Source: Minwuia thermotolerans
GTDB taxonomy: Bacteria; Pseudomonadota; Alphaproteobacteria; Minwuiales; Minwuiaceae
Length of the DNA stretch: 24,000 bases
Direction: 5' to 3'
Assembly (NCBI RefSeq): GCF_002924445.1
Contig: NZ_PIGG01000053.1
Location: 10,063 to 34,062, forward strand
This document shows, one piece after another, positions 9,059 through 12,538 of the stretch. The notes below the pieces were generated by a model that worked only from the letters and a program-made list of their open reading frames with translations, made no database searches and had not been told where the DNA came from. Every line of letters starts with the position of its first letter. Position 1 is the stretch's first letter. A program made the translations under genes and the position numbers.

Positions 9059-9501
9059 CGGAAGTCGCGTTCTATCACCTGACCCGCAAGCCGCTGGAAC
9101 GGGCCCTGCCCGAGCTGCTGGAAAAGGTGCTGGAGCGCGGCATGCGCGCGGTGGTGCTGGCGGGCTCCGAGGAGCGCGTGCGCGGCCTGGACGCGCATCT
9201 GTGGAGCTATGACAAGGCCTCGTTCCTGCCCCACGGCGCGGCCGGCGATGGCGATGCCGGGCGGCAGCCGATCTGGCTCACCGCCGAGCCGGAGAACCCC
9301 AATGCCGCCGAGGTGCTGATCCTGGTCGACGGCCGCGACGTGGCGGACAAGTCGGATTTTGCCCGCTGTCTGGACATGTTCAACGGCCTGGACGAGGACG
9401 CCGTGGCCGCCGCCCGCGCGCGCTGGCAGGCGGCCCGTGCGGCGGGCCACGTCTGCACCTACTGGAAACAGGGCGAGCGCGGCTGGGAACGGGGCACATA
9501 A
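9055..9501 (+). CDS. holC: DNA polymerase III subunit chi
   Basis: The 148 aa ORF begins MTEVAFYHLTRKPLERALPELLEKVLERGMRAVVL...LDAHLWSYDKASFLPHG, which is a typical HolC N-terminus. It has an ATGA overlap with the pepA stop (9055-9058). The pepA-holC pair is conserved. Confidence 0.9.
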   Translation: MTEVAFYHLTRKPLERALPELLEKVLERGMRAVVLAGSEERVRGLDAHLWSYDKASFLPHGAAGDGDAGRQPIWLTAEPENPNAAEVLILVDGRDVADKSDFARCLDMFNGLDEDAVAAARARWQAARAAGHVCTYWKQGERGWERGT

Positions 9502-9614
9502 GAACATCCCCGCCGCTCACTCTGGAACGTCACCCATGAGCATTGCAGACAGGGTTTCTTCGCGGACAAAGATATTATAGAATATTGCGCATTCGCCAAT
9601 GTGTGGGAAACACT

Positions 9615-10640
9615 ATGAAATCAATATCATTTTTTAATAACAAGGGTGGCGTTGGAAAAACGACACTCACTGAAAATATCGCTGCATATTTTGCCCTAGA
9701 GAAAAAACAGAGGGTTCTTATTATTGACTGCGATCCGCAATGCAATATTACTCAACTTGTTCTAGGTGATATCAAGACTATTGATTTATATTGGCCAGAA
9801 AAAAATAACAAAGAAGAAACTAAATCAAAAACAATACTGGACGTTGTGGATCCAATTCTAAGTGGAGATGCCGACATAAATTCTCGAATAAGACCTCTGA
9901 GATCAAGCAGCAATCGTTTCGGTGTCGATCTGCTACCCGGCCATCCCCGTTTCTCAACATTCGAGGACGAATTATCAGGATCTTGGGCCGAATTGCCTAC
10001 CGGAAAGGCCGGCGGCTTCCGTGTGACAAACTGGCTACGGTCTTATTTACGCGGTTTAGAAGAAGATTACGATATTGTTTTTATTGACGTCAGCCCATCA
10101 TTAGGGGCATTAAATAGATCTGTTCTTCTTTGCTCTGACTACTTTGTTGTCCCACTTGGCGCCGATGCATTTAGTGTCCTGGGTATTCGTAATATTTCCC
10201 GCTGGATGAGCAGTTGGATTGATTATTATGAAGTAGGTCTTGAACAGTCCGACAGATTGAATCCTGGAGGTTTAGAAAAATATAGTATTATGACAGATAT
10301 TTCAATAAAGAGGGGTTTCATAGGCTTCACACTACAACAATACATTGCCAAAGCAAAAGCTGGAGTTCGGCGACCCACTAAAGCATATGAGAGAATATTG
10401 AATGATATACCCAGAGAGATAGACACTTATCTTAGCAGCTTTGTCGCGAACAATATGGCAACTCCACACCTGGGTGATGTTCCAAATCTATATAGCCTGA
10501 TTCCGATGGCGCAGAGCGCGAACGCTCCAATTATTGCGCTCGAATCTAAGGATGGGCTAGTTGGAAGTCAATTTGGACAGGCTGCACGCTACCGCAACAT
10601 TATCGGCGAATTGGCCGAAACTATCGGAGAGAGGGTATAA
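9615..10640 (+). CDS. ParA/MinD/Soj-class P-loop ATPase (deviant Walker A), 341 aa
   Basis: The track ORF is 9543-10640. I place the start at the ATG at 9615 (MKSISFFNNKGGVGKTTLTENIAAYFA), which puts the Walker A near the N-terminus as in ParA-Ib/MinD proteins. The deviant Walker A KGGVGKTT is at 9642-9665. It is followed by RVLIIDCDPQCN (Walker A') and DIVFIDVSPSLG (Walker B). Codon usage is AT-rich and unlike the host. Confidence 0.85.
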   Translation: MKSISFFNNKGGVGKTTLTENIAAYFALEKKQRVLIIDCDPQCNITQLVLGDIKTIDLYWPEKNNKEETKSKTILDVVDPILSGDADINSRIRPLRSSSNRFGVDLLPGHPRFSTFEDELSGSWAELPTGKAGGFRVTNWLRSYLRGLEEDYDIVFIDVSPSLGALNRSVLLCSDYFVVPLGADAFSVLGIRNISRWMSSWIDYYEVGLEQSDRLNPGGLEKYSIMTDISIKRGFIGFTLQQYIAKAKAGVRRPTKAYERILNDIPREIDTYLSSFVANNMATPHLGDVPNLYSLIPMAQSANAPIIALESKDGLVGSQFGQAARYRNIIGELAETIGERV

Positions 10641-11495
10641 GTGCCCGTTTCTTGGCCAAATACACTTGTCCGTGAAATAGCGGAACGAAGAGCAATTCTA
10701 TTCGTGGGCTCCGGCGTCACAAAATCGGCATTGCCCACACTTCCTAACTGGCCCGACCTATTAAGTGAACTGGCAGAGCGCGTAGATAAAAAGAAAGATG
10801 TGGCCCTTGTCAAAAGTCTGATCCGTAGAGACCGGCTTCTTGATGCCGCTGAATTGATAAATTCACTATTGTCGCCGGTTGAAAGACGGGCTATTTTTGA
10901 GAATAAATTTCTATTTACACCGCCACCTCAAGCAGAGATTTATAGATACCTACTGGATTTAGATTTTAAGGTATGCATAACCACAAATTACGATCAATTT
11001 CTTGAAAAGAATTTTGAATACCATAGCGGCGGCGCCATAGCCTACCAAGTTCGAACTTATAAATATGACAATTTTTTAGCTGATCTCAGATCTCCATCTC
11101 GGACTATTCTAAAACTACATGGGTGCATCACCGATCCGAGCAGTATCATACTGGACCGGCAGCCCTATTTTAAAGCAAAGGCCAATAATCCAGGTATATA
11201 TGATATTGTTGAAGCCCTTTCGACGGTAAATACTGTATTATTTTTTGGATACTCTATAAATGATCCCGATATTCAGTTGATTTTAGAAAGAATTCATGCC
11301 AGATCTCGAACCGATCATCCACACTATGCGCTTGTGTCTAAATTCGAGCACCCGTCTCTTCGAAAAGCCCTGAATGAAACATTTAATGTATCGTTCGTCG
11401 AATACCCCAAAGGTATACACCAGGAATTTCCGGAGGCCGTAAAAGAATTGAGAGACGCAGTAAAGGCCGAACGGGCGCGGTTCGGTATTCCGTGA
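10641..11495 (+). CDS. Stand-alone SIR2-like domain protein (SIR2_2-type, predicted NAD+-consuming effector), 284 aa
   Basis: The GTG start at 10641 directly abuts the TAA of the upstream gene, and a GGAGAGAGGG Shine-Dalgarno-like run lies at 10626-10635. Motifs are ILFVGSGVTKS (aa 19-29), CITTNYDQF (Asn116, codon 10986-10988), ILKLHGC (His160, codon 11118-11120) and VLFFGYSINDPDI (aa 199-211). This is the pattern seen in ThsA/DSR-type SIR2 domains. Confidence 0.8.
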   Translation: MPVSWPNTLVREIAERRAILFVGSGVTKSALPTLPNWPDLLSELAERVDKKKDVALVKSLIRRDRLLDAAELINSLLSPVERRAIFENKFLFTPPPQAEIYRYLLDLDFKVCITTNYDQFLEKNFEYHSGGAIAYQVRTYKYDNFLADLRSPSRTILKLHGCITDPSSIILDRQPYFKAKANNPGIYDIVEALSTVNTVLFFGYSINDPDIQLILERIHARSRTDHPHYALVSKFEHPSLRKALNETFNVSFVEYPKGIHQEFPEAVKELRDAVKAERARFGIP

Positions 11496-11614
11496 TAGAA
11501 TTGGGCACGATAATTTTTAGGATCGAACTTGTTTCAATCGCGCTTCTGAGTACGGATGGCATAAGTTTAGGTTGGTGGCTGTCACAAACCCACAAAGGGG
11601 AGGATTAGAATACG

Positions 11615-12538
11615 ATGAATAGCATCTACCACCATATCCGGGTCATGCCGCTGACCGGCGTGCTGGGCGCGGAGATCGAGGGCGCGGATCTCACAATGCC
11701 GCTGCCCGACCCGGTGTTCGAGGAGATCGAGCAGGCCTTCACCGATCATTCGGTGCTGGTCTTCCGGGACCAGGACATGTCCATCGAGGATCAGAAACGC
11801 TTTACGCGCCGCTTCGGCGAGTTCGGCTTCGAGCCCTATGTCGACACCATGAAGGAGCATCCGGAAGTCATCGAGGTCCTCAAGGAGGCCAGCGAGTCCG
11901 GCATGCTGAATTTCGGCGGCAACTGGCACTCCGACTGGAGCTTCCAGGAGGCGCCGCCCCGGGCCACCATCCTGCACGCCAAGGAGATCCCGCCCTTCGG
12001 CGGCGACACCTGTTTCGCCAGCATGTACCTCGCCTACGACACGCTTTCCGACGGCATGAAGGCCATGCTGGAAGGACTGAACGTGATGCATTCGGCCCGG
12101 CGTCCCTATGGCGTCGGCAACAAGCTGTTCGGCAAGTTCAACCGCGCCATGAAGATCCACAACACCGAGGAGGCGCATGCGGAGCTGGCCCATCCGGCGG
12201 TCCGCACGGTGCCGGAGTCGGGCCGCAAGGCGCTGTTCGTCAATCCCGTCTATTCGATCCGTTTCGAGAACATGAGCGAACGCGAGAGCCGGCCGCTGCT
12301 CGAGTTCCTGCACGCGCACGCGACCCGCATCGAGCTGACCTGCCGCGTCCGCTGGGCGCCGGGCACACTGACCATGTGGGACAACCGCTGCGTCCAGCAC
12401 AACGCCATGAACGACTATGACGGCTACCGCCGCCTGCTCCACCGCACCACGGTCAGGGGCGAACGGCCCTGGCTGGAAGGCAGGGCGCCGGGGGGCTCGG
12501 GAGAGCGCGAACCGGCGCTGGCCCAGTCCGCCGGGTAA
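11615..12538 (+). CDS. tauD: TauD/TfdA-family Fe(II)/2-oxoglutarate-dependent dioxygenase (taurine dioxygenase-like)
   Basis: The 307 aa ORF has the N-terminus ...VMPLTGVLGAEIEGADLTMPL, which resembles E. coli TauD ITPLGPYIGAQISGADLTRPL. The H-x-D iron motif is in NWHSDWSF, with a distal His/Arg region (WDNRCVQHNAMNDY...RRLLHR). An AAAGGGGAGGA Shine-Dalgarno-like run lies ~10 nt upstream. The substrate is not certain. Confidence 0.85.
   Translation: MNSIYHHIRVMPLTGVLGAEIEGADLTMPLPDPVFEEIEQAFTDHSVLVFRDQDMSIEDQKRFTRRFGEFGFEPYVDTMKEHPEVIEVLKEASESGMLNFGGNWHSDWSFQEAPPRATILHAKEIPPFGGDTCFASMYLAYDTLSDGMKAMLEGLNVMHSARRPYGVGNKLFGKFNRAMKIHNTEEAHAELAHPAVRTVPESGRKALFVNPVYSIRFENMSERESRPLLEFLHAHATRIELTCRVRWAPGTLTMWDNRCVQHNAMNDYDGYRRLLHRTTVRGERPWLEGRAPGGSGEREPALAQSAG

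Follow-up and report, generated by a model that had tools for sequence, protein, structure and literature searches.

The SIR2-family NADases of bacterial immunity are known from systems of rather different architecture. SIR2-HerA (Nezha) is a two-gene operon of an NTPase and a SIR2-family NADase that aborts infection by NAD+ depletion, and its ATPase partner assembles with SIR2 and gates the NADase. In DSR2 the SIR2 domain is joined to a sensor of ~700 amino acids (aa) that binds the phage tail tube, and ThsA of type I Thoeris has, at its C-terminus, a signal-binding domain of SLOG (or Macro) type, SLOG being the form that binds a TIR-made signal. KomC of Kongming, which acts with KomA, KomB and a dITP signal, is a short, essentially domain-only SIR2_2 protein, as is vertebrate FAM118B (264-370 aa). 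According to PDB titles and one article (PMC12700824), SIR2_2 proteins of this type are activated by filament or helix assembly. Here we describe a 2.1-kb islet of Minwuia thermotolerans (Alphaproteobacteria, Minwuiales), located in an analysed stretch of 24,000 nt (the window), whose 1.9-kb two-gene module combines a ParA-like ATPase with a stand-alone SIR2_2 protein. Judged from its sequence, the pair is most likely an abortive-infection system that combines a SIR2 effector with a partner of a new class.

The module shares with SIR2-HerA the two-gene arrangement of NTPase and SIR2-family protein and, as far as function can be predicted, abortive infection by NAD+ depletion. However, its partner is a SIMIBI-class, ParA/Soj-like and presumably dimerising ATPase instead of a RecA-like HerA hexamer, and the ATPase gene comes first. 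SIR2-HerA was rejected as an identity for the pair since the partner is of AAA_31/CbiA ParA-like and not of HerA/FtsK type; Pfam and NCBIfam detected no HerA or FtsK-type domain in either protein, and the PADLOC 'SIR2' (HerA-type) models matched the SIR2 protein at E = 1e-3 only. DSR2 and ThsA provide the nearest SIR2 domains by sequence and fold, with the same catalytic Asn and His, but the window protein consists of the SIR2 domain only and lacks both the sensor repeats of DSR2 and the SLOG domain of ThsA. DSR1/DSR2 (~1000-1200 aa, N-terminal SIR2 and C-terminal sensor) were rejected because the protein has 284 aa and the Dsr1/Dsr2 models match its SIR2 region only. Thoeris was rejected because the protein ends after SIR2 at 284 aa, the ThsA models cover the SIR2 part only and no ThsB/TIR gene lies nearby. 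In size and domain content KomC and FAM118B are the closest counterparts, but the KomA and KomB genes are not present here. An earlier note on this DNA had recognised a ParA/MinD-class ATPase as SIR2 partner in no named system. In agreement with this, no named system of PADLOC-DB v2.0.0 matched the pair, all PADLOC matches being at domain level, and no description of a ParA + SIR2 system was found in the full-text literature (open-access papers and bioRxiv). The same note had stated that SIR2 effectors are always fused or paired, which was too strong, since a preprint reports a stand-alone 'sole-Sir2' (bioRxiv 10.1101/2024.12.27.630466).

The islet and the features of the pair, in window coordinates, are the following.

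9502-11614, no strand assigned: low-GC islet, presumably acquired horizontally as one unit and bounded by the stop codon of holC (9501) and the start (ATG) of a tauD-family gene (11615)
9615-10640, + strand: ParA-like ATPase of 341 aa, DIP2308/3PG5-type subfamily of the ParA/Soj/MinD-class deviant Walker A ATPases (Pfam, alignment, fold)
9642-9662, + strand: deviant Walker A (KGGVGKT), in which Lys10 is the signature lysine and Lys15 that of the P-loop (invariant in 29 homologues)
10638-10643, + strand: gene junction TAA-GTG, zero spacer, same reading frame (TAA 10638-10640, GTG 10641; read from the sequence)
10641-11495, + strand: stand-alone SIR2_2 protein of 284 aa with GTG start, predicted NAD+ glycohydrolase effector (Pfam, alignment, fold)
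10986-10988, + strand: codon of catalytic Asn116 in the TTNYD motif (invariant in 42 homologues; opposite TTNYD of DSR2 in the profile alignment)
11118-11120, + strand: codon of catalytic His160 in the KLHG motif (invariant in 42 homologues; aligns with 'KVHG' of DSR2)

The SIR2_2 protein and its ATPase partner

The SIR2 protein (100% identical to PJK28860.1, 284 aa) matches the Pfam family SIR2_2 (PF13289) at 1.2e-29, the cut-off of the family being 24.5 bits. It consists of this domain and little beyond it, and homologues of 283-284 aa align with it end to end. Among 42 homologues of at least 35% identity, the residues G23 and G25 of the GxG NAD-binding loop, T114-T115-N116-Y117-D118, K158, H160, G161, G203 and D208-P209-D210 are invariant, so that every motif named in the earlier note for a SIR2_2 domain is present and conserved. 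The KVHG motif of DSR2 includes His171, the residue mutated in the deposited H171A structures. In profile searches of solved structures the protein matched DSR2 (2.4e-24), ThsA (4.5e-24), KomC (4.4e-20) and FAM118B (6e-17), and the closest folds to its AlphaFold2 (AF2) model (pLDDT 90.4) were the SIR2 domain of DSR2, KomC and ThsA. The bacterial proteins among these closest solved relatives, DSR2, ThsA and KomC, are all anti-phage NADases. A canonical sirtuin deacylase was rejected, since at E <= 0.01 only PF13289 and not PF02146 was matched and no canonical sirtuin appeared among the solved-structure matches. The PADLOC models that matched were PDC-S25, ThsA, LmuA (1.4e-20) and Dsr1, and the Dsr2 model of NCBIfam matched below its threshold.

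The SIR2 subfamily comprises 545 clusters at 50% identity (E <= 1e-30). Fusions also occur within it, namely SIR2::N6_N4 methyltransferase (P0302), SIR2::CHAT protease and SIR2::NA-iREase1-NACHT (Avs-like), listed with P0370 and P0385. The RefSeq call of the window protein (WP_164516592.1, 263 aa) is 21 codons short, as it starts at the GTG inside 'LFVGSG' (window 10641-10706) and thereby loses the conserved N-terminal helix and part of strand 1. The start at GTG 10641 is backed by the GenBank entry PJK28860.1 and by all homologues.

The start of the ATPase gene, whose product is 100% identical to PJK28859.1, was fixed by an alignment of 29 homologues at ATG 9615 (MKSISFFNNKGGVGKT), while the mechanical open reading frame (ORF) begins at TTG 9543; the Lys15 numbering used previously agrees with the ATG. 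Pfam assigned the protein to AAA_31 (2.7e-33) and CbiA (1.8e-13). K10, G11, G12, V13, G14, K15 and T16 of the deviant Walker A, D38 and D40 of Walker A' and D158 of Walker B are invariant across these homologues (57-85% identity), which bears out the previous ParA/MinD-class call, and many subfamily-specific positions are likewise invariant. To judge from this alignment, the ATPase has every residue for ATP binding, sandwich dimerisation and hydrolysis. A PDB profile search matched it over its full length to 3PG5 (E = 3.1e-77; 31-32% identity), and Soj reached only ~1e-14. Foldseek with the AF2 model (pLDDT 81.7) also placed 3pg5 first (TMt 0.81), with Soj, ParA and McdA next in rank at TMt ~0.7. 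The model shows one Soj-like domain with subfamily-specific insertions. 3PG5, the DIP2308 protein of Corynebacterium diphtheriae, is an uncharacterised structural-genomics target and the sole solved structure of the subfamily. No model of PADLOC-DB v2.0.0 represents the ATPase, the only match being to a P-loop stretch of PDC-M28B (E = 3.7e-4). The UniRef label 'Helicase DnaB' (A0A2M9FZJ2) and the JGI label of its relatives, 'cellulose biosynthesis protein BcsQ', are not supported by domain or fold evidence.

The ATPases of ParABS systems (Soj/ParA, ParF, SopA) have the same overall fold, deviant Walker A with signature lysine, Walker A' and Walker B, but the ATPase described here carries ~90 extra residues as insertions, belongs to the separate 3PG5-like subfamily and has a fixed NADase-type partner. 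A housekeeping or partition-type system, in which the ParA-like protein positions DNA or cargo and the SIR2 protein regulates it as a deacylase or ADP-ribosyltransferase, would be in line with the ParA/Soj fold, with the public annotation 'ParA family protein' and with the location beside the replication gene holC. Nevertheless we regard such a role as most improbable. ParABS was rejected because no ParB-like ORF, centromere-like repeats or repeat array are present in 9300-11800, where the SIR2 gene is the only neighbour, and because the NCBIfam partition models remain far below their cut-offs (ParA_partition 60.9 bits vs 180, RepA 53 vs 348). The SIR2 protein moreover belongs to PF13289, a type for which the relatives of known structure are NADases and not canonical sirtuins, and the pair is distributed sporadically and horizontally with flanks that differ in every genome. 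On one plasmid of Vibrio ponticus it even coexists with a separate ParA-ParB.

Linkage and co-divergence of the two genes

The presence of exactly two co-directional genes without a spacer, as claimed previously, could be read directly from the sequence. Read-through of the TAA in 10638-10643 would give a ParA-SIR2 fusion. The same-frame junction is probably incidental, because at most other loci the two genes are in different frames and share a 4-nt overlap.

The ATPase-side search covered one genome per species and yielded at least 590 loci with relatives, of which 80 were kept. In 45 of the 50 closest genome loci (ParA identity ~35-80%) a SIR2 homologue lies directly downstream of the ATPase; the remaining five comprise four Corynebacterium 'orphans' and one locus truncated by the end of its contig. 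When the search was started from the SIR2 side, the ATPase was found upstream of 15 of the 16 full-length subfamily members on viral contigs, the sixteenth being cut by a contig end, and of 74/76 on metagenome contigs. The adjacency across taxa that the earlier note's proposal implied is therefore essentially obligate. The hosts belong to about 10 phyla and include Alpha-, Beta- and Gammaproteobacteria, Bacteroidota, Planctomycetota, Verrucomicrobiota, Acidobacteriota, Bacillota, Actinomycetota and Cyanobacteria.

Of the 119 complete pairs, 50 begin SIR2 at -4 nt relative to the ParA stop, and for 118 this distance falls in the range -17 to +11 nt, a spacing that fits co-transcription and translational coupling. 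The ParA and SIR2 distance matrices of these pairs correlate with r = 0.90, a value that none of 999 permutations attained; the two proteins co-diverge and are inherited together. All-against-all BLAST of the ORFs within 5 kb at 42 loci revealed no third gene common to all loci, and the non-coding DNA upstream and downstream of the pair failed to align among 14 related loci. Because a common third gene and conserved flanking DNA are both missing, the unit comprises only these two genes. Measured against its nearest relative, the window pair has dN values of 0.11 (ATPase) and 0.23 (SIR2), and the comparison is confined to dN because dS has reached saturation. By these estimates both genes are under strong purifying selection, with SIR2 evolving about twice as fast as the ATPase. 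At 9942-11339 of locus L004 (Mesorhizobium shonense) an apparently decayed copy was observed, in which the ATPase match (63% identity) stops early and a SIR2 fragment of ~112 aa remains.

Mobility, defence neighbours and methyltransferases

Mean GC of the two genes is 42.4%, compared to 65.6% in the flanks. In 200-nt windows GC ranges from 0.60 to 0.74 until ~9500, from 0.345 to 0.515 up to ~11700 and from 0.60 to 0.72 thereafter; the abrupt drop described earlier was thus reproduced, but its depth is 35-50% GC and not the 30-40% given before. Low GC is a general property of the pair, which is below its flanks in 77 of 81 loci (median 10.5 points; Wilcoxon p = 2e-14). Such a bias would be expected if the module continues to spread horizontally, and it supports the previous proposal of horizontal acquisition. 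Plasmid-borne copies also exist, e.g. on pVPon1, the Vibrio ponticus plasmid mentioned above, and prophage-like contigs carry the pair with integrases, portals, terminases and repressors as neighbours. In the P2-like prophages L093, L095 and L102 it lies, in either orientation, between the gpA replication nickase and the portal, a slot that is a hotspot for anti-phage systems (Rousset et al. 2022, PMC9122126). In Pseudomonas aeruginosa, where 249 blocks of the collection list the protein, the pair is located in an islet between pdxB and aceK that also contains the remnant of an integrase, two genes of unknown function and the type IV restriction enzyme GmrSD.

At three loci the ATPase gene is immediately preceded, on its own strand, by an ORF of 320-345 aa (P. 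aeruginosa L081, 8829-9794; prophage contigs L098, 3900-4931, and L108, 3867-4847). None of the three has a Pfam, PADLOC or PHROG match. Those of L098 and L108 are mutually related (88%), and BLASTP gave them no relatives among the ORFs of the other viral loci.

Mobility of this kind would also be expected of a selfish addiction or exclusion module similar to toxin-antitoxin (TA) systems, in which the ATPase neutralises a toxic NADase, loss of the element or a competing plasmid frees the toxin, and phage defence is at most a side effect. The pair resembles TA operons in having a conserved neutraliser-like gene first, a toxic enzyme second and overlapping stop and start, and it is compositionally foreign, occurs on plasmids and prophages and in many genomes stands alone as an islet with no defence genes beside it. 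Still, most copies are chromosomal islets without a replicon or mobility gene to stabilise, an ATPase of 341 aa with all catalytic residues invariant far exceeds the needs of an antitoxin, and the gpA-portal hotspot as well as the restriction-modification (R-M) and GmrSD neighbours point to immunity. We consider pure addiction improbable, while noting that it overlaps with an immune function since many TA-like modules are abortive-infection systems.

Linkage to methyltransferases tracks the ParA tree. One ParA clade, which spans Bacillota, Beta- and Gammaproteobacteria, always has a BamHI-type R-M system beside the pair (L017, L019, L020, L022, L028, L096 and probably L193), consisting of a BamHI-family endonuclease and a methyltransferase in shuffled gene order and orientation. 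Elsewhere a dedicated N6_N4 methyltransferase of ~370 aa, here called MT-A (FxGxG followed by SPPY; members 40-70% identical), is found directly downstream of the pair (L018, L025, L027) or, in Salmonella (L090, L224, L226), directly upstream, and no restriction endonuclease accompanies the Salmonella MT-A loci. Finally, the P0302 fusion mentioned above is a SIR2 protein of 665 aa with a C-terminal MT-A, 53% identical to the L018 methyltransferase; in two assemblies (L229, 2365-4362; L230, 2206-4203) it comes after a ParA-like gene and overlaps it by 4 nt. The methyltransferase-linked and fused variants suggest that the cue in some lineages is unmodified DNA.

All of these arrangements, i.e. 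the operonic MT-A, the natural SIR2::MT-A fusion, the missing endonuclease in Salmonella and the clade beside complete BamHI-type systems, would agree with the pair being the effector arm of an epigenetic R-M-like system, where the ATPase scans DNA and reports unmodified DNA and SIR2 'restricts' via NAD+ depletion. The two-gene form of the window would then need either a methyltransferase from another place in the host genome or some other cue. For the module as a whole we judge this unlikely: the window and its whole clade lack a linked methyltransferase, as does the majority of the 119 pairs, a domain that reads DNA modification was not detected, and ParA-type ATPases are known to bind DNA sequence-nonspecifically. 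Since the linkage to methyltransferases is seen in particular clades only, it may be an accessory and not the core logic.

Taken over all loci, R-M or methyltransferase genes neighbour the pair in about 14 by plain count, while many copies are solitary. The association with defence genes anticipated by the earlier note is seen in the P2 hotspot, GmrSD and the R-M/methyltransferase clades but not in the clade of the window, whose members are usually solitary. The association thus appears partial but real, and is uneven between clades.

The window islet itself is flanked by core genes, pepA (Peptidase_M17) and holC (DNA_pol3_chi) on the 5' side and the TauD-family gene, bioY (BioY) and atpF (ATP-synt_B) on the 3' side; these domains agree with the earlier placement between holC and a tauD-family gene in a housekeeping region. 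Target-site duplication, terminal (inverted) repeat and integrase were all sought at the islet borders and none was found, and the window contains no tRNA. Two intergenic regions complete the islet.

9502-9614, + strand: upstream intergenic region, AT-rich from ~9560 (read from the sequence)
11496-11614, + strand: downstream intergenic region, whose 3' end is the GAGG ribosome-binding site of the host tauD-family gene

The upstream region presumably holds the islet's own promoter, although the consensus scan of 9502-9614 gave no 9-of-12 promoter site. No terminator-like site was found by the terminator scan 3' of the SIR2 gene. The 5' end of the tauD-family gene contains an imperfect 36-nt direct repeat (window 11645-11731; 78% identity, 51-nt spacing), which encodes two alike MPLxG...EIE peptide stretches.

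Proposed mechanism and the wider ATPase family

We propose, with reasonable though not high confidence, that the islet is an abortive-infection NADase module with the ParA-like protein as its controller. This reading builds on the SIR2_2 domain with its invariant N116 and H160 and its defence NADase relatives, and on two genes that behave as one unit, move horizontally and recur in defence contexts. The module would be a horizontally acquired, self-contained two-gene anti-phage (or anti-mobile-element) system of the abortive-infection type. Its effector would be the SIR2_2 protein, which once activated would hydrolyse NAD+ and halt the infected cell, and the ParA-like protein, made together with SIR2, would control it as an ATP-dependent dimerising switch. 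The ParA/MinD class is known for ATP-gated switching that depends on a DNA surface. In the version that we prefer, the ATPase would keep SIR2 inactive in a complex on DNA until an infection cue, either foreign or unmodified DNA or a phage protein, changes the state of the ATPase, which would then free SIR2 or nucleate an active SIR2 assembly. The ATPase may in this way serve as the sensor. The computational tests that were run support the interpretation given in the earlier note. The NADase activity of SIR2, its physical association with the ParA-like protein, the binding of DNA by the latter, the kind of trigger and the protection against phages are predictions from sequence, and so are the anti-phage function and mechanism of the pair.

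The proposed logic would be closest to that of SIR2-HerA, PARIS (AriA-AriB) and Lamassu (LmuB-LmuA, including SIR2-type LmuA), with a ParA-class switch in place of theirs. In PARIS and Lamassu, too, an ATPase scaffold silences the effector until a phage cue or abnormal DNA appears, but their ATPases are of the ABC/SMC class (AAA_15/21, SMC) and not of the ParA/MinD class, and the pair has no LmuB/SMC-like gene.

Several observations weigh against an immune function of this kind. Among the 147 nearest ORFs of 41 loci most are ordinary metabolic or single housekeeping genes, and just two families recur, DNA methylase with 8 ORFs and BamHI endonuclease with 4. The window clade has the two-gene form only and is usually solitary among housekeeping genes (window, L231, L232, L234), so that guilt by association rests on other clades. 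The pair is absent from curated complete phage genomes, where only distant SIR2 and ~28%-identical ParA-like proteins were found, and complete E. coli genomes gave no match to the Salmonella three-gene locus. Finally, the ATPase is consistently more conserved than the supposed effector (mean distance 0.45 vs 0.53). The usual immune pattern is a fast-evolving sensor with a slow effector, and the conservation of the pair runs in the opposite direction. The faster evolution of SIR2 could mean that this protein, or its helical insertion (residues 37-106), is the surface exposed to phage triggers or inhibitors.

More distant full-length relatives of the ATPase (32-35% identity; among L051-L080, e.g. 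L051, 8820-10993) are not followed by SIR2. At 24 such loci a protein of ~395 aa with Schlafen/AlbA_2 and HATPase_c_4 domains is encoded upstream, with a 4-nt overlap with the ParA-like gene, and the PADLOC matches of this protein are pAgo-associated modules. One Schlafen-ParA pair directly precedes the BREX gene PglZ (L065, 666-5133) and another adjoins a HEC-01A ATPase. The Schlafen/AlbA_2-ParA pair could represent another, as yet unnamed system that uses this ATPase chassis. In the P22-like Salmonella phages ST160, SE1 and ST-32 a full-length relative (28% identity) occurs together with a DUF3024 gene, and both lie between the c2 repressor and the gp24 antiterminator (L092, ST160, NC_014900.1, 4515-6068), which is the slot where lambdoid phages carry exclusion genes (sieB, rexAB-type). 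The Corynebacterium 'orphans' (L039, L040, L041, L046; 3PG5/DIP2308 type), which lack the SIR2 partner, adjoin a type IV methyl-directed restriction enzyme of 975 aa (ResIII, DUF3427, PLD).

One ATPase with swapped partners would be the pattern of a modular immune chassis. It is conceivable, though we hold it only tentatively, that the ATPases of the 3PG5-like ParA subfamily form a so far unrecognised sensor or switch chassis of general use in prokaryotic immunity with SIR2, Schlafen/AlbA_2-ATPase or DUF3024 partners, to which some lineages add a methyltransferase, up to a SIR2::methyltransferase fusion, and so arrive at an R-M-like response by NAD+ depletion instead of DNA cleavage. In its methyltransferase-coupled and fused variants the pair seems to bridge restriction-modification and abortive infection. 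SIR2 NADases are a recurring bacterial immune effector with eukaryotic echoes (FAM118, SARM1-like logic), and every new SIR2 partner shows another way to sense infection. No description of a ParA/MinD-class ATPase as an immune partner was found in the literature covered, and such a partner would be a new sensing principle, which is directly testable since the module is present in P. aeruginosa and Salmonella.

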